A DNA stretch of 18,447 nucleotides from a virus (taxonomy: Duplodnaviria; Heunggongvirae; Uroviricota; Caudoviricetes): IMG/VR virus record IMGVR_UViG_2778261463_000012, positions 1 to 18,447 of that record, one strand, 5' to 3'. Positions 2,713-17,688 of this stretch are shown piece by piece; the stretch's first letter is position 1, and each line of letters opens with the position of its first letter. The notes under the pieces are model-generated. The model ran no database searches. It was not told the origin of the DNA and saw only the letters and a program-made list of their open reading frames with translations. The position numbers were made by a program, and so were the translations under genes.

Positions 2713-2928
2713 ATGTCTCTCAACATTGACTGTGTACCTATTACGACATGGTGTCGTGATATGGGAGAAACTCTGGATGCCGTTAACAAACGGTTACAAC
2801 GTGGAGTATGGGAGGAAGGGGTTCAGGTTTTAAATGTGGAAGGCTCCAAAGAACGATGGATTGATTTAACTGAGGTTTCAAAATGGGCGAGAAAAAACAA
2901 ATATCCTTATCACTCCCAAGAGGAATAA
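2713..2928 (+). CDS. putative excisionase-like small DNA-binding protein (71 aa)
   Basis: Small ORF immediately upstream of, and overlapping by 46 nt, a tyrosine integrase gene (classic xis-int arrangement). GAGGT precedes ATG 2713. Assignment is by context and size only. Confidence 0.4.
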   Translation: MSLNIDCVPITTWCRDMGETLDAVNKRLQRGVWEEGVQVLNVEGSKERWIDLTEVSKWARKNKYPYHSQEE

Positions 2929-4055
2929 CAATTCGTCAATACAAGAATTGCTCTACATTAGTTGTGACCTTCACCTATAAAGGGGTTCTTTGCAGGGAAC
3001 CCTTATCAAGGCTGGAAGTTAACGCAAAGGGGATTAAGTATGCTGAACGACTGCTCGGAGAAATAAAAAACAAAATTAGTGATGGCTCATTCGATTTTTC
3101 AGAGTACTTTCCAAACTCCAAGAAGCTTATATTATTTGGAATGGTAAAGAGGAATAAAAGTGTGAAAGATTACCTAGATGAATATTTAGAAATTTGCAAA
3201 AACAGAAAGTTATCCCCTTCAACAATAAATGGATATGAAAAATGTGTATCTGCATTATCGGAACTACATAACTTACATGTTATTGACCTGACTCCAGCAA
3301 TTTTAAAGAAATGGATTTCAAGAAGAACAACAAAACTGAAGACCATCAGAAACAATTTATCATTTTTAAGAAGCGCAGTAGATGAGGCTGTCACTGACGG
3401 ACTTATAACAATAAACCCTGTAAAACTAGTTAGTGCAAGTAGATACCATGCTGTTAACCATACAACCAATTCTGCCGAATATGAAGTAGACCCCTTTACG
3501 CCAGCAGAAGCAGCCGCTATCTACAACGCCTGTATCTATGAGGAATGGCGAAACCTTTTTTGTTTCGCATTCAATACAGGCCTTCGAAGCTCAGAATTAT
3601 GTGCATTACGTTGGTCTGATATTGATTTTATTGGTCATACCGTTCATGTACAGGTTGCTTCTGTCGTTGGTGTGATAAAAGGAACAAAAACAAAAGCTGG
3701 TACAAGAAAAGTTGAATTAAACAGTGAAGCCCTAATGGCATTACAGTCACAGAAATCATTTACGATGATGAGAAGTGCTTTTGTATTCAGTGACCCAAAG
3801 ACACGCAAACCGTGGGCTAATTCAGCAGCGATTCGTAAGAAAGCCTGGATCCCGACTCTTAAAAAAGCTGGTGTTCGTTACCGTAATCCATATCAGACCA
3901 GACATACATTCGCTACACGACATATCAGCCAGGGGGCAAATTTATTCTGGCTTGCAGGCCAAATGGGGCACAAAGGACCCGAAATGCTTTTTAGACACTA
4001 TGGTTCATATTTATCAGAATATGATGGTAATACAGCAATCTCAGAAGTAATCTAG
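2883..4055 (+). CDS. tyrosine recombinase / integrase (390 aa), AT-rich
   Basis: C-terminal catalytic region with the conserved box II pattern (RHTFATRHISQGANLFWLAGQMGHKGPEMLFRHYGSY; HxxR and terminal Tyr). Transcribed toward the ssrA-like att core at 4189-4214. Confidence 0.85.
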   Translation: MGEKKQISLSLPRGITIRQYKNCSTLVVTFTYKGVLCREPLSRLEVNAKGIKYAERLLGEIKNKISDGSFDFSEYFPNSKKLILFGMVKRNKSVKDYLDEYLEICKNRKLSPSTINGYEKCVSALSELHNLHVIDLTPAILKKWISRRTTKLKTIRNNLSFLRSAVDEAVTDGLITINPVKLVSASRYHAVNHTTNSAEYEVDPFTPAEAAAIYNACIYEEWRNLFCFAFNTGLRSSELCALRWSDIDFIGHTVHVQVASVVGVIKGTKTKAGTRKVELNSEALMALQSQKSFTMMRSAFVFSDPKTRKPWANSAAIRKKAWIPTLKKAGVRYRNPYQTRHTFATRHISQGANLFWLAGQMGHKGPEMLFRHYGSYLSEYDGNTAISEVI

Positions 4056-4188
4056 TCGCTTAAATATTTCAAAATATGTACAAAGGTAGGACACAGAATA
4101 GACCTTAACTTACACCTGAAATACATAAAAATATACAGTGAAATATGAAATCATTTGTATTTCATATTGTTATGTAATTTGGGTGTTT

Positions 4189-4214
4189 GGGTTCAACTCC
4201 CGCCAGCTCCACCA
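4189..4214 (+). other. att core: 26-nt copy of the tmRNA (ssrA) 3' end (GGGTTCAACTCCCGCCAGCTCCACCA); not a full tmRNA gene
   Basis: Exact match to the 3'-terminal 26 nt of E. coli tmRNA as I recall it, ending in CCA. The sequence upstream (4060-4188) is AT-rich and unrelated to tmRNA, so this is an attachment-site duplicate. Confidence 0.7.
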
Positions 4215-4250
4215 CTTGCTCTTCCGGATACGTCCGGAGAAATCCTGAAA

Positions 4251-4283
4251 GCCCGCATGGCACAAGCTCTGCGGGCTTTTTTG
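4251..4283 (+). terminator. rho-independent terminator (ssrA-type) downstream of att core
   Basis: Stem GCCCGCA (4251-4257) / TGCGGGC (4271-4277) followed by TTTTTT (4278-4283). Confidence 0.6.
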
Positions 4284-4326
4284 TGTCTACTGTTGTCCGA
4301 GGATATCCAGCTAAATCCAGTGATTA

Positions 4327-4378
4327 TTGGTATACGTTTAGGTATACGGTAGGATGTATACCTAAACGCGTATACCAA
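4327..4378. promoter_or_regulatory. imperfect inverted repeat of GGTATACG-containing arms immediately upstream of int; candidate Int-binding/operator site
   Basis: Left arm TTGGTATACGTTTAGGTATACG (4327-4348) and right arm GTATACCTAAACGCGTATACCAA (4356-4378) are near-perfect reverse complements. A single copy of the arm recurs at 12578-12599 near the other end of the element. Confidence 0.4.
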
Positions 4379-4398
4379 TTCATGAAGGAGCGGCCAAA

Positions 4399-5598
4399 TT
4401 GGCAAGAACGACACGCCCCCTGACCAACACAGAAGTACTGCGCGCTAAAGCGTTAGAAAAGGATCTAACGTTGCATGATGGCGATGGTCTTTTTCTACTC
4501 GTTAAAACGAACGGTAAGAAGTTATGGCGTTTCCGTTATCAACGTCCGGCAACAAAGCAGCGGACAATGATGGGGCTAGGTACCTTCCCAGCTCTTTCAC
4601 TTGCTGACGCCCGACGGTTAAGAGCGGATTACCTTTCCTTGTTAGCCAACGGAATTGACCCGCAAATTCAAGCTGAAATTGCAGAGGAACAGCAGCAAAT
4701 CGCACAGGACAGTATTTTTACAACGGTCGCCGCTAACTGGTTCCAGCTTAAAAGCAAAAGCGTAACCCCTGATTACGCAAGAGACATTTGGCGCTCATTG
4801 GAGAAAGATGTATTCCCTGCCGTTGGTGAACTCCCAGTTCAGCAAATCAAAGCCCGAACGTTGGTTGAAGCGCTTGAGCCAGTCAAAGCTCGTGGGGCGC
4901 TAGAGACTGTACGTCGGCTAGTGCAACGCATTAACGAGATAATGATCTTTGCCGTAAATACAGGGCTGATCGATGCCAATCCAGCTTCCGGGGTTGGAAT
5001 GGCCTTTGAGAAGCCAAAAAAGCAAAACATGCCAACACTACGACCAGAAGAACTACCAAATCTAATGCGTTCTTTAGCCATGTCTAATTTATCTGTATCG
5101 ACTCGCTGCCTTATCGAATGGCAGCTTCTAACACTTGTACGCCCTTCTGAAGCCTCTGGTACTCAATGGGCAGAGATCGATCTTGAGAATAAACTCTGGA
5201 CGATCCCTGCAGGACGAATGAAAGCCAAGCGAGAACATATTGTTCCTCTGTCGGTTCGAGCATTAGATATTTTAGAGATAATGAAGCCTATTAGTGCACA
5301 TCGTGAATATGTTTTCCCAAGTAGAAATAATCCTAAGCAACCAATGAATAGTCAGACAGCTAATGCTGCATTAAAAAGAATTGGTTATGGAGGAAAGCTT
5401 GTTGCACATGGTTTGCGTTCTATAGCCAGTACAGCTATGAATGAGGAAGGTTTTAATCCCGATGTTATTGAAGCAGCATTAGCGCATAGCGATAAAAATG
5501 AAGTCCGTAAAGCATATAATCGTTCGACTTACCTTTATCAACGAATTGATTTAATGAATTGGTGGGCTAACTTCGTGTTTAAAAAAACACACGAATAG
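4399..5598 (+). CDS. int: P4-type tyrosine integrase (399 aa, TTG start)
   Basis: AAGGAG at 4385-4390 then TTG 4399. N-terminus MARTTRPLTNTEVLRAKA...DGDGLFLLV and C-terminal HGLRSIASTAMNEEGF...ALAHSDKNEVRKAYNRSTY match the P4/CP4-57 integrase architecture. Sits directly downstream of the ssrA 3'-end att core. Confidence 0.9.
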   Translation: MARTTRPLTNTEVLRAKALEKDLTLHDGDGLFLLVKTNGKKLWRFRYQRPATKQRTMMGLGTFPALSLADARRLRADYLSLLANGIDPQIQAEIAEEQQQIAQDSIFTTVAANWFQLKSKSVTPDYARDIWRSLEKDVFPAVGELPVQQIKARTLVEALEPVKARGALETVRRLVQRINEIMIFAVNTGLIDANPASGVGMAFEKPKKQNMPTLRPEELPNLMRSLAMSNLSVSTRCLIEWQLLTLVRPSEASGTQWAEIDLENKLWTIPAGRMKAKREHIVPLSVRALDILEIMKPISAHREYVFPSRNNPKQPMNSQTANAALKRIGYGGKLVAHGLRSIASTAMNEEGFNPDVIEAALAHSDKNEVRKAYNRSTYLYQRIDLMNWWANFVFKKTHE

Positions 5599-5611
5599 CC
5601 CACATAAAATA

Positions 5612-5634
5612 AGAGGCTGCTCAATGCAGCCATT
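5612..5634. terminator. probable bidirectional terminator between convergent int and cargo operon
   Basis: Hairpin GGCTGC (5615-5620) / GCAGCC (5626-5631), flanked by A-rich sequence upstream and T-rich downstream on the + strand. Confidence 0.4.
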
Positions 5635-6379
5635 ATTTCAATGAATTAATATACGTATTTAATCCTGTTGATTTTATAACTCCCATCACTTCTGGTGATT
5701 TTTTCAAATAAACAACATTAGGCCATGACAGATAAGCAATAATAATACATATTAGTCGAACCATTGCAAAATCAGACAGATTAATGAGAGTTTCAATATA
5801 CATATGTTTATCTTGCTCATCGAAACCATTTTCAGTTATAACTTCATTATCAACAAGTTTAACTGCAAGATAAAACCTTCTTGCAAATGAAAACATCTTA
5901 TCATCAGATTTATCATCTAATGATTCAATTATTTTAATCAAAGCATCTTCAGCAATACCTCTTTGAATACTGGTTTTAATCAGTTGCTCAAGTTTATTTA
6001 CAGCATTAACCTTTTTAACTTCAAAATCACCACTTGGAGATGGAAAAATCAAAGAGAAATCATCAAAAGCACTTTTTTGCGCGTTAATTAAATTATAAAA
6101 TTGAAATTCAAATGACTTCCTTTTATCAAGAAACTCCTGTCTTTTAGTCTCATTAATTAAACATTCATTCGCAGTTAATTGCATTTTAACTGATTTAATT
6201 AGAAGTAATATTGAAATGAAACTCAATATAGGATTAAGAACACCTCCAAAATAATCACCAAACTGTCCCCATATCTCTTTGTTTTCAGAAAGAGTGGTTG
6301 AGCTTCCACCAAATTGATAATAGTATAATCCAAAGACTACTAATATCAAAATAGATGTAACCCAACCTATATACCTCAT
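5633..6379 (-). CDS. membrane-anchored protein of unknown function (248 aa); downstream gene of the two-gene cargo operon
   Basis: Two N-terminal hydrophobic helices (IGWVTSILILVVFGLYYY and VLNPILSFISILLLIKSV) flank a Gly/aromatic-rich motif (WGQFGDYFGG); charged, probably helical C-terminal domain. Start overlaps the stop of the upstream gene (ATGA). GAGGTGG RBS. AT-rich. Confidence 0.65.
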   Translation of the reverse strand: MRYIGWVTSILILVVFGLYYYQFGGSSTTLSENKEIWGQFGDYFGGVLNPILSFISILLLIKSVKMQLTANECLINETKRQEFLDKRKSFEFQFYNLINAQKSAFDDFSLIFPSPSGDFEVKKVNAVNKLEQLIKTSIQRGIAEDALIKIIESLDDKSDDKMFSFARRFYLAVKLVDNEVITENGFDEQDKHMYIETLINLSDFAMVRLICIIIAYLSWPNVVYLKKSPEVMGVIKSTGLNTYINSLK

Positions 6380-7197
6380 ACCCCATCCACCTCAATAATT
6401 AAGTATTTCACTACCTCACCATTACTGATGGTTAAATCTCTAACTTTTAATAACAAATACTCTCGCTCTTCTTCTGCCAGTCTATTGTTAGCATCTAGAT
6501 TACTCGTTATTTTCTTGGTCTGGGCATCAGTAACGTATTTTAGACCATTCAAAAAACCAAAAGAAGTCGTTTTTTCTTCCCCCCTGACTAACAGTCTACC
6601 ATTTCCAGTAAAAGTATTAAACCTAGTAACTATAGCTTCTATCTGATGATCATGATTAGTTTCAATTAGCTCAGTTATATTCAAAGCGGTATTTTTGTTT
6701 AAAGTAATTATCTTTTGCTTCTCACCCGGCTTTCTATAATTCAAATCAACTGAATAGTTGCACATGGTGGAAATTTTATGCATATTTTTAAGTCTATTTC
6801 GAATAGCTTTAGTCAACTCATCTTCAATATCGTCTAATCCGGAAACCACTTTTTTTGCAGCGTCACTCAATGCCGGACCTTCTAAAAAAAGAGACTCATA
6901 AATATAATAACTCATAACTTCTGCAAATACAGTGCGAGTCATACTTGAAAGACGCGCTGCAACTTTTCTATCTGATATAACAACATCAAATCGCTGACCA
7001 AAAGAGCCTGTAAAAGAATGCTTAAGGTTTGTTCTTATTTCATTAGATTGATGTCTGTTTTCTTTAACTTTACCTCGAAGTATTGCCTCTGTAATAATAC
7101 TGGTAACTCCAGATGCACCCAATAGTGTCTGGAGAGCATAATCCATATCTATTTCATCGTCGCCGCTATTGATAACCAAATCAAGACTAACTTTCAT
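6376..7197 (-). CDS. protein of unknown function (about 273 aa); upstream gene of the two-gene cargo operon
   Basis: ORF track gives 6376-7245, but GGGGAAA precedes the ATG at 7197 (MKVSLDLV...), which I prefer as the start. Soluble; no Walker or other catalytic motif I can assign. AT-rich, unlike the P4 backbone. Confidence 0.6.
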   Translation of the reverse strand: MKVSLDLVINSGDDEIDMDYALQTLLGASGVTSIITEAILRGKVKENRHQSNEIRTNLKHSFTGSFGQRFDVVISDRKVAARLSSMTRTVFAEVMSYYIYESLFLEGPALSDAAKKVVSGLDDIEDELTKAIRNRLKNMHKISTMCNYSVDLNYRKPGEKQKIITLNKNTALNITELIETNHDHQIEAIVTRFNTFTGNGRLLVRGEEKTTSFGFLNGLKYVTDAQTKKITSNLDANNRLAEEEREYLLLKVRDLTISNGEVVKYLIIEVDGV

Positions 7198-7333
7198 TAT
7201 TTCCCCACGAATTGATAAAAATCTGCTCAATGAATAAAAGTCCATATTTTTATACAGTAATCAAACTTCCAATGTCTAAAATATGCAAACACATTAAACT
7301 AAATTTATGATAGTGATCAACATATTGCGCGCA

Positions 7334-7352
7334 GTGCTTTCCCCGCCTCGCC
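7334..7352 (-). other. P2/P4-type cos site (19-nt cohesive-end sequence)
   Basis: + strand reads GTGCTTTCCCCGCCTCGCC, the reverse complement of the P2/P4 cohesive end GGCGAGGCGGGGAAAGCAC as I recall it. Located just beyond the 3' end of psu, as in P4. Confidence 0.65.
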
Positions 7353-7455
7353 CGCCCGCTTTGTGGGGCGGTTTTAATGCAGTTGTACTGACACGCTCAG
7401 ACTGCGCCGGGAATGGCGCGGTCTGCAGAAAATGAGGCAGGGAAACGCATGCAAA

Positions 7456-7486
7456 GCCATGCACCTTATCGATGCATGGCTTTTTT
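7456..7486 (+). terminator. rho-independent terminator-like hairpin between cos and psu
   Basis: Stem GCCATGCA (7456-7463) / TGCATGGC (7473-7480), loop of 9 nt, then TTTTTT (7481-7486). The reverse strand has only a short T-run. Confidence 0.45.
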
Positions 7487-7516
7487 CAGTAAAAACGGGC
7501 GGATTTTCGGGGAATT

Positions 7517-8089
7517 TTACACAGACTGACGTGATGCCAGTTGCGCACTTTTACGCGAAAAAATCATGTTCTGCGCAGGGGTGAATTTTTCACGGCTGTC
7601 ATCCACCGAAGCCGCGTCAGGCCTGAATCCGATGGTCGTTAAAATGTCGCTATCCTGTGCGGAATAATTAATTTTTTCCCCCTTCGCAAGCCAGGACAGA
7701 AGGGCTTCACGCAGGGCATCTGTGGCACGCTGTATGGCACAGTTTCGGGCAATGGCCGTCAGCTCACTGTAGCCCATCAGCTCCGGTGCCAGTGCGGCCG
7801 CCAGTGCTGTGCCGTGCTGCTGCATAAAATCATTCAGCCGGTCGCGGATGCTGATGTGCTGAACGGCTTCATGCGAACGAATATAACGACCGGCAGCCTG
7901 ATTCACCTGCCATTTTCTGACTTCGATAATATTGCGTAATTCGTCCAGGCGACTGACGTTTCTGCCTTCCCCGGACAGAAGCCGCAGATATTCCTGTTCG
8001 GCCGCAGCCAGCTCATTTTTGCGTTGCAGCCATGCTGCTTTGTTATTCTGACAGGTGTCAAAGGCCTGCTGTAAGGCTGTGCTTTCCAT
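7517..8089 (-). CDS. psu: Psu, polarity suppression / capsid decoration protein (190 aa)
   Basis: 190-aa protein (MESTALQQAFDTCQNNKAAWLQRKNELAAAEQEY...) of P4 Psu length and sequence character, in the conserved position after delta in the sid-delta-psu block and adjacent to cos. Confidence 0.85.
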   Translation of the reverse strand: MESTALQQAFDTCQNNKAAWLQRKNELAAAEQEYLRLLSGEGRNVSRLDELRNIIEVRKWQVNQAAGRYIRSHEAVQHISIRDRLNDFMQQHGTALAAALAPELMGYSELTAIARNCAIQRATDALREALLSWLAKGEKINYSAQDSDILTTIGFRPDAASVDDSREKFTPAQNMIFSRKSAQLASRQSV

Positions 8090-8162
8090 CGTTATCTCTT
8101 TCTCATCATGCTGAAGAATAAAAATACGGTGTGCGGCGACGGCCGGTGTTAACCGGCAGCCC

Positions 8163-8663
8163 TCATTCCAGACGCAGCGAATATGATTGTGTTTTTAAGC
8201 GTACTGGCGGCAGTTCCTGTTTTTCATGCAGGCTTTCTGCCAGTTCGTCCGGCGTGACCGGGCGGACAATAAAACGGTTGATGGTCTGAAGCGTTTTAAA
8301 CACCAGACCACATCCCGGATCCGTGCACACATAAAAACGCTCGGTGACTTCCTGAGACAGACGCCGCGATGTTCTTGACAGTGCAAGGCCTTTACATCTC
8401 CGACAACAATATCCGGTAACAAGCATTCTTTTCGGGCGTTTCATACTGCCGGAGGCTGACGTCAGTGAATCGCGGTATCTCTGTTTGCCTGAAATGTATT
8501 CCATTCCTGAATCTTTACTGTCAGAGAAAAAGCTTTCACTCGCTTCAAATGTCGCAGAGCAATAAATATTCCGGCACTGTGCAATCATTATCTTGGTGCC
8601 ATCGTCCATGAAATGTGCGCGGCGGGTGTGAGCAACATGTCCACACGACGGGCAGTAAATCAT
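8163..8663 (-). CDS. delta: Delta, Ogr/Delta-family zinc-finger late transcriptional activator (166 aa from MIYCPSCGH)
   Basis: Ogr-like zinc-finger motifs (CPSCGH...QCRNIYCSATF, and a second CCRRC...CTDPGCG half), consistent with the duplicated-Ogr architecture of P4 Delta. The ORF track starts at 8720; I prefer the internal ATG at 8661-8663, giving 166 aa. Confidence 0.8.
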   Translation of the reverse strand: MIYCPSCGHVAHTRRAHFMDDGTKIMIAQCRNIYCSATFEASESFFSDSKDSGMEYISGKQRYRDSLTSASGSMKRPKRMLVTGYCCRRCKGLALSRTSRRLSQEVTERFYVCTDPGCGLVFKTLQTINRFIVRPVTPDELAESLHEKQELPPVRLKTQSYSLRLE

Positions 8664-8956
8664 GACAGCAGTCCTCTGGCCTTCAGCTCTGCTCCCTGCT
8701 GGTCTATTTTGTCCTGCCACACCTTGCGCTGTGCCGGTGTGCCTGCCACCTCATAATCCATGTGCGGGAGTGTTGCCGCTGACAGTCCGGCCAGCCGGAG
8801 AACCGGCTCGCCGCTGAGGCTGATTTGTATCTGTTTAATTTTCTGTTCCAGCGATGATTTCACCTGCTGCATGACAGCCTTTTCCGGTGCGACGTAGCCC
8901 TGATGGCCGGTGGTGTTGGCGAGCGGATTTTCCTGTACCAGAATGCTCAGATGCAT
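8660..8956 (-). pseudogene. sid: sid-like ORF, probably 5'-truncated (98 aa from its only ATG; frame open without a start up to a stop at 9116-9118)
   Basis: Occupies the position of sid directly upstream of and overlapping delta. My translation of the upstream frame finds no ATG/GTG/TTG before the stop at 9116-9118, so at most about 152 codons remain, against 244 aa for P4 Sid. Identity rests on position, not motif. Confidence 0.4.
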
Positions 8957-9489
8957 TGCCCGGACAAGCGCCTCACAGGTTTCATTCAGGGCGTGTTCCA
9001 GCTCATGCTCTGCATACAGACTCAGCAGGTGATGATGTGCCTTCCGGTATCCTTGTGCGTATCCTCGCTGACGGGCGCACCACAGACATCCCGCTGGGGC
9101 GTTTTCTGCGGGAATTTACCTGTGACCGTCCTGACCTGTTCAAACGCAGCCCCGTAAACCGGCATGCGGTACTGAAAGAAATGGCCGGAGACCCGGAATT
9201 ACAGAAATGGCGGGAGAAATATCTGGATATTTACCCGCAGGAGCCTGTTCCGGTCAGCCGGGAAGCACCGGTGGCGCGGGAATGGCGGGAAATTCCCCGC
9301 ACGGAGCCTGACCCGGAAATCACACCGGATAACAGTTACCGCAATTATCTGTAATTAAAAAACGACACCCGAAAAATTAAATGTGCGTATTCGCGCAGGG
9401 ATACGCACGTCTTCAGGAGACGCAGATATGCCTTATCAGTTAATGCAACCGGCACGGAATTCAGTCATCTGTCACAGGGAGGAAAGCAA

Positions 9490-9810
9490 ATGAAAACACC
9501 CTTACCGCCCGTCTTACGCGCTGCCCTTTACCGTCGCGCTGTCGCCTGTGCCTGGCTGACCGTGTGCGAACGTCAGCACCGCTACCCGCATCTCACCCTT
9601 GAGTCACTGGAGGCGGCCATCGCCGCTGAGCTGGAAGGCTTTTATCTGCGCCAGCACGGTGAGGAAAAAGGGCGTCAGATAGCCTGTGCCCTGCTGGAAG
9701 ATTTAATGGAATCCGGCCCCCTGAAGGCCGCGCCGTCGCTGTCCTTTCTCGGGCTGGTTGTGATGGATGAACTCTGTGCCCGTCACATAAAAGCGCCGGT
9801 ACTGCACTGA
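9490..9810 (+). CDS. small conserved protein upstream of alpha (106 aa)
   Basis: GGAGG at 9479-9483 precedes ATG 9490. GC-rich codon usage like the P4 backbone; ends 15 nt before the alpha start. In P4 a small ORF occupies the equivalent position; exact identity not verified. Confidence 0.55.
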
Positions 9811-9824
9811 AGGAGAACAACACC

Positions 9825-12158
9825 ATGAAAATGAACGTAACCGCCACCGTCAGCCATGCGCTCGGCCACTGGCCGCGTATTCTCCCGGCGCTGGGGATTC
9901 AGGTGCTGAAGAACCGTCATCAGCCCTGTCCGGTCTGTGGCGGGAGTGACCGCTTCCGTTTTGATGACAGGGAGGGGCGCGGCACCTGGTACTGCAATCA
10001 GTGTGGTGCCGGTGACGGCCTGAAACTGGTTGAAAAGGTGTTTGGTGTCTCCCCGTCCGACGCGGCCGCAAAAGTGGCTGCCGTGACCGGCAGCCTGCCC
10101 CCGGCTGACCCGGCAGTGACGGCTGCCGCCGGTGCTGAAACAGACGCTGCCCGGAAGAACGCAGCCGCACTGGCACAAACCCTGATGGCGAAAACCTGTC
10201 CCGGAACCGGTAACGCCTACCTGACCCGCAAGGGCTTTCCCGGCCGGGAATGCCGGATGCTGACCGGCACACACAGAGCCGGTGGCGTGAGCTGGCGCGC
10301 CGGTGACCTTGTGGTGCCACTGTATGACGACAGCGGCGAACTGGTTAACCTTCAGTTAATCAGTGCTGACGGCCGTAAGCGCACTCTGAAAGGCGGACAG
10401 GTCAGGGGCACCTGTCACACCTTTGAAGGACAGAATCAGGCCGGAAAACGTCTGTGGATAGCGGAGGGATACGCGACCGCACTTACCGTGCATCACCTGA
10501 CCGGTGAAACGGTGATGGTGGCGCTTTCTTCCGTGAACCTCCTTTCTCTGGCCAGCCTTGCCCGGCAGAAGTATCCGGCCTGTCAGATTGTCCTTGCCGC
10601 AGACCGTGACCTCAGCGGTGACGGCCAGACAAAAGCCGCCGCAGCCGCAGATGCGTGTGAGGGCGTTGTTGCCCTGCCGCCGGTCTTCGGTGACTGGAAT
10701 GATGCCTTCACGCAGTACGGCGGGGAGGCCACCCGTAAGGCCATTTACGATGCCATCCGGCCACCGGCTGAAAGCCCGTTCGACACCATGAGCGAAGCGG
10801 AGTTTTCCGCCATGAGTACCAGCGAAAAGGCCATGCGTATCTATGAGCATTACGGCGAGGCGCTCGCGGTCGATGCCAACGGCCAGCTTCTGTCCCGCTA
10901 TGAAAATGGTGTCTGGAAGGTGCTGCCGCCACAGGACTTTGCCCGGGATGTGGCCGGGCTGTTTCAGCGTCTGCGCGCGCCGTTCTCCTCCGGGAAGGTG
11001 GCCTCCGTGGTGGACACCCTGAAGCTGATTATTCCGCAGCAGGAAGCCCCCTCCCGCCGCCTGATTGGCTTTCGTAACGGCGTGCTCGACACGCAGAACG
11101 GCACGTTCCACCCGCACAGTCCGTCACACTGGATGCGCACCCTGTGCGATGTGGATTTCACCCCGCCGGTGGACGGTGAAACGCTGGAGACCCACGCCCC
11201 CGCGTTCTGGCGCTGGCTTGACCGTGCCGCCGGTGGCCGTGCGGAAAAACGCGACGTGATTCTGGCCGCACTGTTTATGGTGCTGGCGAACCGCTACGAC
11301 TGGCAGCTCTTTCTGGAGGTGACCGGTCCCGGCGGCAGCGGCAAAAGTATCATGGCCGAAATAGCCACCCTGCTGGCCGGGGAGGATAACGCCACGTCGG
11401 CCACCATCGAGACGCTGGAATCCCCGCGTGAACGTGCCGCGTTAACTGGCTTCTCACTGATACGCCTGCCGGACCAGGAAAAATGGAGCGGCGACGGTGC
11501 CGGACTCAAGGCCATCACCGGCGGCGATGCGGTGTCCGTGGACCCGAAATACCGGGATGCGTACTCCACGCATATCCCGGCGGTGATTCTGGCCGTGAAC
11601 AATAACCCGATGCGCTTCACCGACCGCAGCGGCGGCGTGTCACGCCGGCGGGTGATTATTCACTTCCCGGAACAGATAGCCCCGCAGGAGCGCGACCCGC
11701 AGCTTAAGGACAAAATCACCCGCGAGCTGGCGGTCATCGTGCGTCACCTGATGCAGAAGTTCAGCGACCCGATGCTCGCCCGGTCACTGCTTCAGTCCCA
11801 GCAGAACTCAGACGAGGCACTGAACATCAAACGGGATGCCGACCCGACGTTTGATTTTATCGGCTATCTGGAAACCCTGCCGCAGACCAGCGGCATGTAT
11901 ATGGGGAACGCCAGTATCATCCCGCGCAATTACCGTAAATACCTCTATCACGCCTATCTGGCCTACATGGAGGCAAACGGCTACCGGAATGTACTCAGCC
12001 TGAAAATGTTCGGGCTGGGGCTGCCGGTGATGCTGAAGGAATACGGACTGAATTACGAGAAGCGCCATACCAAACAGGGGATACAGACCAACCTGACGCT
12101 GAAAGAGGAAAGCTACGGCGACTGGCTGCCAAAATGTGACGACCCTGCAACAACCTGA
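9825..12158 (+). CDS. alpha: P4 alpha-type primase-helicase (777 aa)
   Basis: N-terminal zinc-binding motif (CPVCGGSDRFRF...WYCNQCGAGDG), a TOPRIM-like primase region (LWIAEGYATALT...VLAADRDLSGDGQ) and a Walker A box (TGPGGSGKS) of a C-terminal helicase domain. Length equals that of P4 alpha; followed by terminator and crr repeats. Confidence 0.9.
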   Translation: MKMNVTATVSHALGHWPRILPALGIQVLKNRHQPCPVCGGSDRFRFDDREGRGTWYCNQCGAGDGLKLVEKVFGVSPSDAAAKVAAVTGSLPPADPAVTAAAGAETDAARKNAAALAQTLMAKTCPGTGNAYLTRKGFPGRECRMLTGTHRAGGVSWRAGDLVVPLYDDSGELVNLQLISADGRKRTLKGGQVRGTCHTFEGQNQAGKRLWIAEGYATALTVHHLTGETVMVALSSVNLLSLASLARQKYPACQIVLAADRDLSGDGQTKAAAAADACEGVVALPPVFGDWNDAFTQYGGEATRKAIYDAIRPPAESPFDTMSEAEFSAMSTSEKAMRIYEHYGEALAVDANGQLLSRYENGVWKVLPPQDFARDVAGLFQRLRAPFSSGKVASVVDTLKLIIPQQEAPSRRLIGFRNGVLDTQNGTFHPHSPSHWMRTLCDVDFTPPVDGETLETHAPAFWRWLDRAAGGRAEKRDVILAALFMVLANRYDWQLFLEVTGPGGSGKSIMAEIATLLAGEDNATSATIETLESPRERAALTGFSLIRLPDQEKWSGDGAGLKAITGGDAVSVDPKYRDAYSTHIPAVILAVNNNPMRFTDRSGGVSRRRVIIHFPEQIAPQERDPQLKDKITRELAVIVRHLMQKFSDPMLARSLLQSQQNSDEALNIKRDADPTFDFIGYLETLPQTSGMYMGNASIIPRNYRKYLYHAYLAYMEANGYRNVLSLKMFGLGLPVMLKEYGLNYEKRHTKQGIQTNLTLKEESYGDWLPKCDDPATT

Positions 12159-12174
12159 CCATCATGACTCATCT

Positions 12175-12199
12175 GACCGGCATCTGCCGGTCTTTTTTT
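12175..12199 (+). terminator. rho-independent terminator of alpha
   Basis: Stem GACCGG (12175-12180) / CCGGTC (12187-12192) followed by TTTTTTT (12193-12199). Confidence 0.6.
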
Positions 12200-12216
12200 A
12201 TCCCTGAATTCCCCGA

Positions 12217-12515
12217 AGGTGAACAATCCACTGTTCACCCTTCACCGTATATTCACCCGTTATCACACTGAAATTAAAAGAGAAAAACGAAAGGTGAACA
12301 GTGTGAACAATCAAATCAAAAAAAACTTTTTTTCTCCCTGTGTGATTTCAGTACGGGGGATTAATCACCGGTATGAGTCACACCGGCAGAATGCCGGAGG
12401 TGAAGAATCGAATGTTCACCCTTCACCCATTATTCACCACCTATCACTCTGAAATAAAAGGAGAAAATCAAAGAGTGAACAGTGTGAACAGTTCTTTCGA
12501 AAAAAAATTTTTTTC
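12217..12515. repeat. crr-like region: two direct repeats of about 120 bp about 60 bp apart, carrying TGTTCACC/GGTGAACA iterons
   Basis: Unit 1 about 12217-12335 and unit 2 about 12398-12515 align almost base for base (e.g. ATGTTCACCCTTCACC... and ...GTGAACAGTGTGAACA... followed by A-run/T-run). This matches the P4 crr organisation and the alpha-binding octamer TGTTCACC. Confidence 0.7.
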
Positions 12516-12577
12516 CTGTACGATATAGCATCAATCCAAGTAAAAATGCGCTTTCATTTCACATTAACTTACAGCCA

Positions 12578-12599
12578 TTGGTATACGATTAGGTATACG
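12578..12599. promoter_or_regulatory. single copy of the GGTATACG-containing arm repeat (candidate Int arm-type site) near the right end of the P4-like element
   Basis: TTGGTATACGATTAGGTATACG differs by one base from the left arm at 4327-4348. Confidence 0.35.
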
Positions 12600-12652
12600 C
12601 ACAAAAACTGAATTAAACAAAATCGTTAAAAATCAAAGCGATACAATATTTA

Positions 12653-12674
12653 TTCAAACTCCGCCAGCCCACCA
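12653..12674 (+). other. degenerate second copy of the tmRNA 3'-end att core (TTCAAACTCCGCCAGCCCACCA)
   Basis: Related to 4192-4214 with a few substitutions/indels, ending in CCA, followed by the same type of terminator and by a second P4-type integrase gene. Confidence 0.55.
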
Positions 12675-12710
12675 ATTTTTGATATATTGAAGTTCAGTGA
12701 AGTCTATCAA

Positions 12711-12742
12711 GCCCGCATGGAACCAGCCTTGCGGGCTTTTTT
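12711..12742 (+). terminator. rho-independent terminator (ssrA-type) after second att core
   Basis: Stem GCCCGCA (12711-12717) / TGCGGGC (12730-12736) followed by TTTTTT (12737-12742); near-identical to the stem at 4251-4277. Confidence 0.55.
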
Positions 12743-12840
12743 ACGTCTATAGTAGTCTACCGAGAATTGCTAGAATCTACTCGTTATGGCACCCTTTTTG
12801 GGACCCAACACAAAGGGTCCAAAACATGAGGGTCCCAAAC

Positions 12841-14070
12841 ATGGCAAAAATCGCTAAGAAGCTCACTGACACTGAAATCAAAAGCACCAAACCTGCCGAG
12901 AAAGAGGTTAACCTTTTTGACGGCGATGGTTTGCTCCTGCGAATCGCCCCCTTAGCGAAGGGAGGAAAGAAAAATTGGTATTTCAGATATGCAGTGCCTG
13001 TGACCAAAAAGCGAACTAAGGTGAGCTTAGGAACCTATCCTCACCTTACACTTGCGAAGGCACGAGCTTTACGTGATGAGTACTTGTCGTTGCTTGCAAA
13101 TGGTATAGACCCACAAGTTCATAACACCCACAAAGCCAATGCCCTTAAGGATGCAACGGAACATACATTTCAAGCAGTAGCCAAGAAGTGGCTTGATGAG
13201 AAAGTCAAAACGTCAGGCATCTCCCAGGATCATGCTAACGACATCTGGCGAAGCCTAGAGAGAAATATCTTTCCAACGTTGGGTGATACCCCCATTAAGG
13301 AGATTCGCCCTAAAATGCTTAAACAGCATTTAGACCCCATAGAAAAACGAGGTGTCCTTGAAACACTTCGCCGCGTCATATCCCGCCTGAATGAAATTTT
13401 CCGCTATGCAGCAACAGAAGAACTCATAGAATTCAATCCGGCTGACAACCTGGGGCAACGGTTCAGCAAGCCAAAAAAACAGAATATGCCAGCATTACCC
13501 CCTTCCGAACTCCCCCGCTTCCTGGTTGCTCTAAACAATGCTTCTATCCGTTTAGAAACAAGGCTACTGATTGAGTGGCAACTTCTCACATGGGTTCGCC
13601 CTGGTGAAGCTGTTCGCACAAGATGGTCAGATATTGATATAGAAACCAGCATGTGGAACATCCCGGCGGAGTTTATGAAAATGAAGAAGCCTCACAAAGT
13701 TCCACTGAGCAAAGAATCTTTGCGAGTCTTGGATTCAATGAAAGCCATCAGCGGGCATAGAGAGTGGGTTTTTCCCAGTATCAAAGCTCCACTCAATCAC
13801 ATGCATGAACAAACAGCTAATGCGGCTATAATCCGTATGGGCTTCGGAGGTGAGCTTGTAGCTCATGGTATGCGATCAATCGCTAGAACGGCGGCTGAGG
13901 AGTGTGGCAAGTTTAGAACTGATGTCTTAGAAGCCGCCCTTGCCCACTCGAAAAAAGATGAAATAATTGCAGCCTACAATCGTGCAGAGTATCTCACAGA
14001 ACGTGTGGTTCTCATGCAATGGTGGAGTGACTATGTTTCGTCTCAAAAATACAAAGTTATTGCCGCATAA
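12841..14070 (+). CDS. int: P4-type tyrosine integrase, second copy (409 aa from MAKIAKKL)
   Basis: The ORF is open from 12697, but the N-terminus MAKIAKKLTDTEIKSTKPAEKEVNLFDGDGLLLRI aligns with the start of the integrase at 4399, and GAGGG precedes ATG 12841. C-terminal catalytic region HGMRSIARTAAEE...ALAHSKKDEIIAAYNRAEY. Paralog of the 4399-5598 integrase, clearly diverged. Confidence 0.85.
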   Translation: MAKIAKKLTDTEIKSTKPAEKEVNLFDGDGLLLRIAPLAKGGKKNWYFRYAVPVTKKRTKVSLGTYPHLTLAKARALRDEYLSLLANGIDPQVHNTHKANALKDATEHTFQAVAKKWLDEKVKTSGISQDHANDIWRSLERNIFPTLGDTPIKEIRPKMLKQHLDPIEKRGVLETLRRVISRLNEIFRYAATEELIEFNPADNLGQRFSKPKKQNMPALPPSELPRFLVALNNASIRLETRLLIEWQLLTWVRPGEAVRTRWSDIDIETSMWNIPAEFMKMKKPHKVPLSKESLRVLDSMKAISGHREWVFPSIKAPLNHMHEQTANAAIIRMGFGGELVAHGMRSIARTAAEECGKFRTDVLEAALAHSKKDEIIAAYNRAEYLTERVVLMQWWSDYVSSQKYKVIAA

Positions 14071-14352
14071 CTCTTCCATGATGGGTTAACTATCTTGATT
14101 TATTTGAAGAATTAATGATCACACCATTAACCTATGTGGACTAAGCATAGCCATTTACAAATGGGTACCTTGAGGCCACATAACGAAAGCTGTCGGTCAT
14201 ATCAGCTAAATAATTCACATCTCTTCTCGATTATCATACACCTCGAAGAACTACCAAATTCGCTCTAATCAATGATAAAACAGTTGAATTCGGTTAAAAT
14301 TTGATCAATTTTATCCTCTACATTGTATTGAATCATCCATGAGGTTTTGTGC

Positions 14353-15909
14353 ATGGCTAGCGGAAATGAAAAAAATCATAGAGTTAGGGTCGCACAGTAC
14401 TTGAGGATGTCTACCGACCATCAGCAATATTCTTTACATAATCAGTCTGAATATATCAAAGATTATGCTGAAAAGAACAATATGGAAATCGCTTATACCT
14501 ACGATGATGCAGGTAAGAGCGGAGTCAGTATCGTAGGCAGGCATTCTTTGCAGCAGTTACTTAGCGATGTAGAACAAAAGAAAATAGATATACAGGCTGT
14601 ATTATTTTATGATGTGAGCCGTTTTGGTCGTTTTCAAAATAGTGATGAAGCTGCATATTATTCCTTTCTATTTGAAAGAAATGGTGTAGATCTTATATAT
14701 TGTTCCGAACCTATACCCACTAAAGATTTCCCTTTAGAGTCCTCTGTTATACTGAATATAAAAAGATCAAGTGCTGCATATCACAGCAGGAATCTATCTG
14801 AAAAGGTATTTATAGGGCAAGTAAATTTAATAAAGCTTGGTTATCATCAAGGCGGTATGGCTGGTTATGGGCTGAGACGTCTTTTAGTAGACGAAAATGG
14901 CATAGCTAAAGAAATATTGAATTTCCGCAAAAGAAAGAGTATTCAAACAGATAGGGTAATATTAATTCCGGGACCAAAAAATGAAATAAAAATTGTAAAT
15001 AGAATCTATGATCTCTTTATAGATAGTAACGTCCCAGAATTCATTATTGCTGAGAGATTAAATGAACAGAGCATACCTGCAGAAAATGGAACATCATGGA
15101 CTCGTGCAAAAATACATCAAATTTTGACAAATGAAAAATATATTGGAAACAACATATATAACAAAACCTCATCTAAACTAAAAAGTAAGCTTGTAAAAAA
15201 CCCCAAACATGAATGGATTAGATGTGACAAGGCATATAAACCAATTATTTCAAAGAAAAAATATAATAAAGCTCAAGAAATAATTCAGCTCCGATCCATT
15301 CATTTGACTAATGAAGATCTATTAGAAAAGCTAAAAGAAAAATTAGAATCTAATGGAAAACTATCAGGCTTTATCATTGATGAAGATGATACAGGCCCTT
15401 CATCTTCTGTTTATAGAACCCGATTTGGTGGTCTTTTAAGAGCATATACTTTGATTGGTTATAAGCCAGAACATGATTACAGCTATCTCCAAATAAATGA
15501 AGCACTAAGATCATTTTACTCAGAGATAATTGAGGATTTTAAGGGCGAAATATTAAAAAGTAACTGTCATATAGACGAGTATAAATATTACCCAATGCTT
15601 TACATCAATGATGAGTTTTTAATTTCCGTCCTTGTTACTAAATGCATACATATGAAATCAGGTAAACTTAGATGGAAAGTCCGGTTTGATAACTCACAGA
15701 AAGCAGACATAACAATTGTTATACGAATGAATTCACAAAATATTTCACCTCTTGATTTTTATATCATACCAAAGATTGAAAACGAATATAGTAAAATGTG
15801 TATGATGGAAACAAACAACATTCGGTTAGATCTCTATAGATTTGATAATCTTGATAAATTTCTACAAATTATTACTCGCATGAAAGTGAGGGAACTATAT
15901 GCTGCCTGA
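14353..15909 (+). CDS. large serine recombinase (about 518 aa)
   Basis: N-terminal resolvase-type catalytic domain (VAQYLRMSTDHQ with the presumptive catalytic Ser; YDDAGKSG; DVSRFGR) and a recombinase domain (GYGLRR...SWTRAKIHQILTNEKYIGN), then a long C-terminal extension. GAGG at 14341-14344 precedes ATG 14353 (ORF track starts at TTG 14347). Very AT-rich. Confidence 0.8.
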   Translation: MASGNEKNHRVRVAQYLRMSTDHQQYSLHNQSEYIKDYAEKNNMEIAYTYDDAGKSGVSIVGRHSLQQLLSDVEQKKIDIQAVLFYDVSRFGRFQNSDEAAYYSFLFERNGVDLIYCSEPIPTKDFPLESSVILNIKRSSAAYHSRNLSEKVFIGQVNLIKLGYHQGGMAGYGLRRLLVDENGIAKEILNFRKRKSIQTDRVILIPGPKNEIKIVNRIYDLFIDSNVPEFIIAERLNEQSIPAENGTSWTRAKIHQILTNEKYIGNNIYNKTSSKLKSKLVKNPKHEWIRCDKAYKPIISKKKYNKAQEIIQLRSIHLTNEDLLEKLKEKLESNGKLSGFIIDEDDTGPSSSVYRTRFGGLLRAYTLIGYKPEHDYSYLQINEALRSFYSEIIEDFKGEILKSNCHIDEYKYYPMLYINDEFLISVLVTKCIHMKSGKLRWKVRFDNSQKADITIVIRMNSQNISPLDFYIIPKIENEYSKMCMMETNNIRLDLYRFDNLDKFLQIITRMKVRELYAA

Positions 15910-16795
15910 AAAAAATGAATTCCCAATAATTCAAATTGAGATTGCAAAAATAAAATTTCTTAACCCACGAACAAGAAATAAGGTAGTGCATGAAGAAATA
16001 AAGGAAAGCATAAAAAAAAGAGGATTAAGCAAGCCTATAAGCGTAAGAGCTATTGATGAAGACGATTTCAAATATGCTTTAATTTGTGGTCAAGGGAGAA
16101 TAGAGGCTCTTGTTGCATTAGGTGAAACTATTATTCCAGCAATTATAAGAGATGTATCAGAAGAAGATGCTTACGTTATGAGTTTAGTTGAAAACATTGC
16201 AAGGAGAAGACCACGTTCTAATGAGTTATTACAGGTGATTAAAGACATGAAAATCAGAGGACTTTCAGACTCCGAAATAAGTGAGATTACTGGATATTCA
16301 TCGAACTGGGTGAGCAGTATTAATATGCTTCTTGATAAGGGAGAGCATAAACTTCTCTCAGCAGTCGAACGGGGTAATTTGCCTCTGTATCTCGCAGTGC
16401 AATTTGCAAGATGTGAAACTGAGGAAGCACAAGATATTCTTACCGAAGCATATGATAAAAAATTAATAAAAAGTCGGGACATTATAAAGATAAAATACAT
16501 TCTAAATCAAAGAACAGTTGGGAATAAAGGTGCAAAAGCAGCCGGATTTTATTATCACAAACCATCAAAAAGGATGACTGCAGAGGAGTTGATTGAGCTT
16601 TATGAAAATAGTATCGCTGAACATAAATCTGTTTATAACAACTCGAAATTTATAAAAACCAATCTACTAATAATAAATGAGATTTTTAACATCATAATGA
16701 TGAATAAAAGCTTTCAAAATATACTTGAACAAGAGAATCTTTCAGAACTACCATCTCAGATATTAAACCCAGTAAACAAAGAGGTATCAAAATGA
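15899..16795 (+). CDS. ParB/Srx-superfamily (ParB N-terminal domain-like) protein, paralog 1 (298 aa)
   Basis: ParB-like N-terminal motifs (PISVRAIDEDDFKYALICGQGRIEAL; ENIARR). Start overlaps the recombinase stop by 11 nt; RBS GTGAGGGA. Confidence 0.7.
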   Translation: MLPEKNEFPIIQIEIAKIKFLNPRTRNKVVHEEIKESIKKRGLSKPISVRAIDEDDFKYALICGQGRIEALVALGETIIPAIIRDVSEEDAYVMSLVENIARRRPRSNELLQVIKDMKIRGLSDSEISEITGYSSNWVSSINMLLDKGEHKLLSAVERGNLPLYLAVQFARCETEEAQDILTEAYDKKLIKSRDIIKIKYILNQRTVGNKGAKAAGFYYHKPSKRMTAEELIELYENSIAEHKSVYNNSKFIKTNLLIINEIFNIIMMNKSFQNILEQENLSELPSQILNPVNKEVSK

Positions 16796-17688
16796 TTCAG
16801 ATACGTTTTGGCAAAAATTTTATTTACCTGGAAACTAATAAGTTAATTCCATCTAAGGAATTATTAGAAAACGTAAAGCGAAGCCATAAATATCATCAAA
16901 TAGTTACCTCTATCGAAAGCTTGGGTATTATTGAACCAATAATAGTATTCTATGACAAAGATAAAGATGTCACTAAGATACTTGATGGCCATTTAAGGGT
17001 TGAGGCTTTAAAAGACTTAGATATAGAAAAAGCTCCATGTATACTTTCGAGCATAGATGATGCTTTCACTCCTAACAAACAAGTGAATCATATAAATGTA
17101 GTTGAAGAACATAGAATCATAATTAAGTCTCTGGCAAAAGTATCAATTGAAAAACTTAGTGCTGCTTTGGGCATATCTGTTGATGCCATAAAAGATAAAG
17201 CTAATGTGATGAACGGCATAGATCCAAGTGTAATTGCGAAACTTTCTGATAAACCTATACCTAAGGCTACATTTGACGTTTTGAGGAAAATGAAGCCAAT
17301 TCGTCAAATTGAAGCAGTCGGTACAATGATTAATTTTGATAATTATAGTAAAAAATTTGCAATGAGCATCTTGGATGCAACACCGTCATCGATGATAGTA
17401 AATAAAGGGAAAAACACTCCCTATAAAAAGGACATAAAAAAAACCATACTTCGTCTGGAACAAGAAATGGCAACAACTTCGGAAGAAACGAAAAAACTTC
17501 AAACCGAGTATGGTTCAGATATGTTGAAATTCGTTATAATCCAGTCATATATTAATAAATTACTTGGCAACTCTAAAGTTCTTCATTGGTTCTTAGAAAA
17601 CGAGGTTGATTATCTTAATGAGTTAAAAAGAATTTCTAGAATAAATTCTTTGGATGATAAGACTCTTACTGAAAACAGCCAGTCATAG
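16792..17688 (+). CDS. ParB/Srx-superfamily (ParB N-terminal domain-like) protein, paralog 2 (298 aa)
   Basis: ParB-like N-terminal motifs (IIEPIIVFYDKDKDVTKILDGHLRVEAL; VVEEHR). ATGA overlap with the preceding gene; RBS AGAGG. Same length as paralog 1. Confidence 0.7.
   Translation: MIQIRFGKNFIYLETNKLIPSKELLENVKRSHKYHQIVTSIESLGIIEPIIVFYDKDKDVTKILDGHLRVEALKDLDIEKAPCILSSIDDAFTPNKQVNHINVVEEHRIIIKSLAKVSIEKLSAALGISVDAIKDKANVMNGIDPSVIAKLSDKPIPKATFDVLRKMKPIRQIEAVGTMINFDNYSKKFAMSILDATPSSMIVNKGKNTPYKKDIKKTILRLEQEMATTSEETKKLQTEYGSDMLKFVIIQSYINKLLGNSKVLHWFLENEVDYLNELKRISRINSLDDKTLTENSQS

Follow-up and report, generated by a model that had tools for sequence, protein, structure and literature searches.

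Why a short inverted repeat should sit directly upstream of the integrase gene of a P4-like satellite, with part of it repeated at the far end of the same element, is the question raised by this locus, and to answer it one has to ask what the repeats consist of, what they are inherited with and which protein would read them. The window, by which is meant the whole analysed stretch of 18,447 nt, carries from 4189 to about 12680 a P4-like satellite prophage of Escherichia coli that is integrated at the tmRNA gene ssrA; the same element is found at 99.7% identity in strain E3, where it lies directly after the tmRNA gene.

Repeats and att sites of the prophage

The preliminary description of this DNA reported a near-perfect inverted repeat of a 22-bp arm 5' of the int ribosome binding site. 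The sequence and the positions stand, with the left arm reading TTGGTATACGTTTAGGTATACG at 4327-4348, but the unit of repetition is a box of 7-8 nt set at a 12-nt pitch and the right arm is gapped; its reverse complement reads TTGGTATACG-CG-TTTAGGTATACA, with one mismatch and a 2-nt insertion that gives a 14-nt pitch, and the inverted repeat therefore has a 2-nt bulge. Six GGTATAC boxes are present in the window, sited just within both ends of the prophage. Immediately 5' of int is a set at 4329-4376 made up of two tandem boxes, P' box 1 (4329-4335, plus strand) and, 12 nt from it, P' box 2 (4341-4347, plus strand), and two inverted ones, P' box 3 (4356-4362, minus strand) and P' box 4, which reads GGTATAC(G) (4370-4376, minus strand). 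The far-end set at 12580-12598 consists of two tandem boxes about 55-58 nt short of the right att core, P-arm box 1 (12580-12586, plus strand) and, at the same 12-nt pitch, P-arm box 2 (12592-12598, plus strand). The int-side sequence (4326-4379) is ATTGGTATACGTTTAGGTATACGG-TAGGAT-GTATACCTAAACGCGTATACCAAT, followed by the ribosome binding site AAGGAG (4385-4390) and the TTG start at 4399, and the far-end sequence (12577-12600) is ATTGGTATACGATTAGGTATACGC.

The distal copy of the 22-mer had also been noted and is where it was said to be, at 12578-12599 with a single mismatch (T to A); it ends at 12599 and the attR core follows from about 12653. In shuffled sequence 0.00 matches to the 22-mer are expected and the window has two (0 and 1 mismatch), whilst the 8-mer GGTATACG occurs five times against 0.26 expected, a number reached in 0/200 shuffles. 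The sixth copy, at P' box 3, is GGTATAC only, and the one remaining GGTATAC in the window belongs to a palindrome, GGTATACC, at 558-565. A full-text search of a literature library for the box sequences found no papers in it containing TTGGTATACG or GGTATACGTTTAGG.

The backbone of the element is that of phage P4, with about 98% identity over 7325-12513 and a cos site at 7352/7353. Homology to P4 ends with crr (12513), with none in 12514-12680 or 4189-7324, and as it is absent at both flanks the two arms, the core, int and two cargo genes make up a swapped module. In an element whose backbone is so close to P4, the arms, core and int show no relationship to it, and the boxes are therefore part of the int/att module, P-arm box 1 lying 66 nt beyond the end of P4 homology. 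Relative to P4 there is a deletion of 2.18 kb at about 9047-9049 (P4 7747-9928), which takes part of orf151, epsilon, cI, vis, ori and the 5' part of sid, and the element in the window is probably unable to excise or replicate alone, though its int is intact. Next to the P-arm boxes is a 122-nt direct repeat (12213-12334 and 12394-12515, 80% identical) with GGTGAACA...TGTTCACC palindromes, which matches crr of P4 together with the alpha-binding octamers annotated there as 'ori type 1'. Between int and psu are two ORFs of 248 and 289 aa on the minus strand (5633-7245) that have no Pfam match; in relatives this slot holds other cargo, for example an HNH protein with an AAA ATPase, a DEAD helicase with a nuclease, or a NACHT protein. 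The variable int-psu slot is a known defence hotspot of P4-like satellites.

The attL core at 4189-4214 (plus strand) is a copy of the ssrA 3' end (GGGTTCAACTCCCGCCAGCTCCACCA) at which homology to sister elements begins, and in relatives the corresponding stretch ends a complete tmRNA gene. ARAGORN found no tmRNA gene in the window, so the ssrA array begins further left. The attR core at 12653-12674 (plus strand) is a degenerate ssrA 3' end; it repeats attL inexactly (TTCAAACTCCGCCAGCCCACCA against TTCAACTCCCGCCAGCTCCACCA), the block CCGCCAGC alone being perfectly common to the two. Since the variant left half of attR, ATTCAGACTCCGCCAGC, is kept across genera, it is probably the element's own core-type site. 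After the attL core, in the P' arm, the element supplies a strong terminator, a hairpin with a T-run at 4248-4285 (plus strand) that is conserved in 56 relatives, the terminator-like site itself being called at 4264-4278 plus tail. A small conserved palindrome, CCGGATACGTCCGG, at 4224-4237, likewise element-supplied, lies between this terminator and the rebuilt ssrA 3' end, and a second terminator, 74% similar to the attL-side one, is found 3' of the attR core at 12709-12745.

Between the attL-side terminator and the boxes, on the core-proximal side of the latter, are three TCC(G/A)(A/G) motifs (GTCCGAG, ATCCAG and ATCCAG; 4295-4320, plus strand) at an exact 10-nt pitch. The series is conserved in 56 relatives and is also present in the P' arm of P4 despite the module swap, and its members are candidate sites for Vis (the excisionase) or IHF. 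An IHF consensus scan gave one-mismatch matches only, at 4314-4326 and 12631-12643, which are too weak to assign. To the left of the attL core, in the upstream lambdoid element, an AT-rich inverted repeat at 4131-4170 (AATATGAAAT ... ATTTCATATT) is possibly an arm site for the integrase of that element, or an IHF site.

Conservation of the boxes in P4 and in relatives

The arm repeats of P4 attP were reportedly described by Pierson and Kahn in 1987. The comparison made here is with the 12-nt "attP arm sequence repeat" features of the GenBank annotation (NC_001609). Read in the int direction, P4 has tandem repeats beside crr (GTGGGGGCACAA, AAGGGGGCATAT), 56 nt, a 20-bp core, 115 nt, a second pair of tandem repeats (ATTGGGGGCATA, ATTGGGGGCATC), 15 nt and finally one inverted copy at the start of int. 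Order, orientations and the 12-nt pitch are alike in the window, and the distances between boxes and core agree within about 2 nt, at about 58 against 56 nt on the P side and, counted between the last base of the ssrA copy (4214) and the first of P' box 1 (4329), 114 against 115 nt on the P' side. The two systems are also alike in integrase family and domain architecture, in having the P boxes beside crr and, as predicted for the window, in having boxes over the int control region; P' box 4 is the counterpart of the single inverted P4 repeat at the int start (P4 3915-3926). The box sequence differs, being GGTATAC in the window and GGGGGCA in P4, as does the core, which is the ssrA 3' end in one and tRNA-Leu (leuX) in the other. 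There are two inverted boxes in the window but one in P4, and P4 has an arm repeat within the int coding region (3621-3632) whereas the window has none. By this comparison the boxes correspond to the P4 arm repeats of the 1987 description, in an int/att module that is specific for ssrA.

Relatives were collected by a protein-based scan with one genome per species, which gave 67 int-homolog loci with Int 47-90% identical, in Escherichia, Kluyvera, Enterobacter, Erwinia, Pantoea, Citrobacter, Raoultella, Tatumella, Photorhabdus, Colwellia and other genera. More than 50 of the 67 loci lie about 185 nt after a complete tmRNA gene. The repeats would have lost their interpretation as integrase sites had they been missing from the att regions of related elements, but they are present, the layout being found 67-71 nt before the start codon in every locus with an intact 5' region. 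Six loci (L049, L055, L056, L062, L066 and L070) in which the boxes are unclear and the int 5' regions truncated or rearranged were left out of the counts. The boxes fall into two main classes, GGTATAC (30 loci) and GGTACAC (26 loci), with minor classes of GGCCCA (L047 and L061), GTAACA (L064, from Colwellia) and AGTACCA (L068). Copies change in concert so that each element has one variant; E. coli W619 (L002), for example, has GGTACAC at both ends. The sole mixed locus, in Enterobacter cloacae M-7 (L018, 9932-9950), has GGTATAC then GGTACAC 5' of int, and at its far end GGTATAC then GGTATGC, and is perhaps an element in decay or an intermediate form.

The class core is exact in 55/56 relatives at P' box 1, in 54/56 at P' box 2 and in 55/56 at P' box 4. 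P' box 3 is weakly conserved (exact in 20/56) and is possibly a low-affinity or dispensable candidate site; the set conserved among relatives is thus two tandem boxes and one inverted box, as in P4. That the repeats occur at both element ends, as had been claimed for this DNA, is borne out in the window and in all 17 loci in which both ends are visible, where the far-end tandem pair is of the same class and orientation and always stands 52-58 nt before ATTCAGACTCCGCCAGC. When each locus was searched on both strands for its own box, no tandem pairs were found elsewhere in 1.34 Mb. The boxes form islands of conservation, the far-end pair being the outermost conserved block of the right end; the DNA outside it cannot be aligned and the P-arm spacer is variable. 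A less regular attP, which is a point against the arm-site reading, is found in Klebsiella phage Kp4865-2, whose Int is 60% identical and whose repeats look different on the two arms, TTAGGCACC forming an inverted pair beside int and TGGCGACAG a tandem pair on the opposite arm, a match that is unclean. Among complete E. coli genomes the P'-arm region occurs in 434 of 5426, and the ssrA-targeting integrase has been found in dozens of Enterobacterales genera.

The sister element in strain E3 (L001) separates the boxes from most of the P4 gene set. Its Vis is 99% identical to P4 Vis, with one residue different, and identity to P4 is 97-100% for its alpha, psu, delta, sid and DUF5375 proteins, but the boxes it carries are GGTATAC and not GGGGGCA; the boxes therefore follow Int, which is 35% identical to P4 Int, and not Vis. 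Within Int, residues 4, 11, 13, 23, 52, 54 and 57 fully separate the two main box classes, for instance T52/Q54/M57 in the GGTATAC class against S/S/N in the GGTACAC class, however these class-specific residues are suggestive only as they are confounded by descent. The co-variation of Int and boxes could itself be in part the co-inheritance of one module instead of selection.

Which protein would read the boxes

The int gene (4399-5598, plus strand) encodes a P4-family tyrosine integrase of 399 aa with a TTG start, where homologs start with GTG or ATG. In Pfam it has Arm-DNA-bind_3 (4.7e-23), Phage_int_M and Phage_integrase domains, an arm-binding domain thus being present besides the core-binding and catalytic ones; the former, at residues 8-91, matches the N-domains of PDB 3JU0 and 3JTZ. 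No solved arm-DNA complex was found for the Arm-DNA-bind_3 family. The boxes differ from the core and flank it on either side in attP, their sequence is specific to Int and co-varies with it and not with other element or host proteins, and their layout is homologous to that of P4, which has been studied experimentally. The suggestion of the preliminary description that the repeats are integrase arm-type sites gains support from the P4-like layout, the Int-linked co-variation at both ends and the Arm-DNA-bind_3 domain, and we consider it very probable that the GGTATAC boxes are arm-type sites of the element's own Int, predicted to be read by its N-terminal domain.

From the layout, its conservation and the co-variation with Int we infer how the boxes would be used. 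Once excised and circular, the element would carry in succession the tandem P pair, an AT-rich spacer of about 58 nt, the core formed by the ssrA 3' end, a stretch of 114 nt, the tandem P' pair, one or two P' boxes in inverted orientation and int. Int protomers would bind the arm boxes and bridge them to core sites across bent DNA, thereby assembling the intasomes for integration and for excision in the manner of lambda and P4. On integration the set would be divided, with the P' boxes going to the left end of the prophage and the P boxes to its right end.

It could be argued that the boxes bind an excisionase or directionality factor of the Vis or AlpA type instead of Int, given that P4 Vis acts in the attP/int region and represses int, according to work cited within PMC2951348, and that most relatives encode a Vis homolog. 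It would seem highly improbable, as Vis is 99% identical between P4 and the sister element while their boxes are unrelated, and the boxes are kept in elements without vis, among them the one in the window, L002 and L058. A two-armed layout with inverted boxes also contradicts it, the sites of directionality factors being typically direct repeats one helical turn apart in the account excerpted from PMC7498355, to which the TCC motifs at 4295-4320, with their 10-nt pitch and their presence in P4, are a better fit. The boxes might alternatively be operators or iterons for another protein of the element or host, for example P4 alpha or a repressor, and the P-arm pair does adjoin the crr-like repeats at 12213-12515, with crr 65 nt away. 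Alpha is however about 98-100% P4-like and binds TGTTCACC-type repeats annotated in P4, which the boxes do not resemble, nor do they resemble the P4 boxes; the int-psu cargo differs in every relative, Int is the sole gene always linked to the boxes, and a host factor would not be expected to shift its sequence preference from element to element. We regard such an origin as extremely improbable.

A reading of a different kind holds that the inverted repeat is an RNA or DNA hairpin controlling int, be it a 5'-UTR structure, an attenuator or a cruciform, and that the distal copy is incidental. The region 4320-4405 does fold at -35.9 kcal/mol (z = -6.3), and the T-to-C change in boxes 1 and 4 is compensatory for pairing. 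The half of the stem formed by box 2 and box 3 is nevertheless broken in most relatives, with 2-3 mismatches in 23 of the 26 loci of the GGTACAC class, no T-run follows the stem, P4 has just one inverted copy, and the distal tandem pair co-varies though it has no inverted partner. Furthermore, a conserved -35/-10-like signal lies within the left arm, so that a transcript would hold the right arm only. We have little belief in the hairpin, and for RNA it was rejected because half of the stem is unconserved, the distal copy co-varies and the promoter-like signal is inside the stem.

A candidate int promoter and neighbouring ssrA modules

The signal in question, TTGGTA-N17-TAnnnT, is conserved and overlaps the boxes, with TTGGTA in 55/56 and TAnnnT in 56/56 relatives. 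TTGGTA at 4327-4332 consists of box 1 and its flank and is a candidate -35, and the candidate -10 hexamer TAGGAT (4350-4355, plus strand) stands 17 nt after it; the T, A and T positions of this hexamer are invariant, and in the GGTACAC class it comes close to consensus, as TATACT or TATAAT. A consensus promoter scan of 4100-4500 and 12150-12900 gave no match at a threshold of 9/12, the candidate in the window scoring 8/12, so it is from conservation that we take the signal to be a putative int promoter. Transcription would start near 4362, with the -35 inside box 1, box 2 between the two hexamers and boxes 3 and 4 across the region of the start.

As the P' boxes overlap this putative promoter, Int bound to them should repress its own synthesis, and autorepression of int is the likely second role of the boxes. 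The preliminary description had named int autoregulation too, and the support for it is indirect. P4 Int, KplE1 IntS and PAI I536 Int all repress their own promoters, which are embedded in attL (PMC2951348, PMC7286903), a precedent that makes autorepression likely here too; for the autoregulation of P4 Int, PMC2951348 cites Piazzolla et al. 2006. In KplE1 (CPS-53) the IntS arm-type sites and the TorI sites overlap the intS promoter, and repression of int by Int and the directionality factor has been shown experimentally together with their binding (PMC2951348). KplE1, with its int promoter inside attL and P' arm sites over the -35/-10, resembles what is predicted for the present element, and differs from it in integrase subfamily, target (argW) and site sequences, as well as in that binding and repression are here predicted. 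The likeness to lambda (P1, P2, P'1-P'3) lies in a heterobivalent Int, arm sites of mixed orientation on both sides of the core and an AT-rich bendable spacer, whereas lambda has an N-terminal domain from an unrelated Pfam family, sites that differ in number, spacing and sequence, and an int promoter outside attL. The principle is already known, arm sites and integrase autorepression having been established by P4, lambda and KplE1, and what is added is a sequence-level definition of the functional attP for an integrase that targets ssrA and is widespread in P4-like satellites. At the right end, the box pair shows how far an element truly extends, which helps to delimit satellites in tandem arrays.

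Such an array is present in the window, with three tandem tyrosine integrase genes at 2883-4055, 4399-5598 and 12841-14070, each beside a copy of the ssrA 3' end. The integrase at 2883-4055 has an Arm-DNA-bind_2 domain and lies at the end of a lambdoid-looking element, and that at 12841-14070 is like IntA of CP4-57. The CP4-57-like int has a box set of its own at 12788-12836, ending 4 nt before the ATG at 12841, with GGCACCC (12788) and GGGACCC (12800) at a 12-nt pitch and inverted GGGTCC (12815) and GGGTCCC (12830). The IntA-type module thus resembles the GGTATAC module in targeting ssrA and in having the same box layout directly 5' of the start codon; it differs in its box, GGGACCC, and in that the set is seen at the int end only, the distal end being outside the window.

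The three ssrA elements share one core, and each has its own integrase and box (the lambdoid type, GGTATAC and GGGACCC). We would tentatively suggest, as a possibility we rate as rather unlikely, that the arm boxes are a code of element identity, by which each Int would pair only its own two ends. Were this true, the change from GGTATAC to GGTACAC, a single base in all copies, would be a natural specificity switch. The change of box class is accompanied by fixed substitutions in the arm domain, such as TKQRTM to SSSRTN at residues 52-57, and the switch could then expose the DNA-recognition rules of the structurally uncharacterised Arm-DNA-bind_3. The co-varying classes of box and N-domain provide material for the study of recognition by this family and for orthogonal integrase/att pairs. 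Further along the CP4-57-like element, at 14347-17688, there is a large serine recombinase (Resolvase and Recombinase domains), followed by two ParB_N/RepB-like genes.
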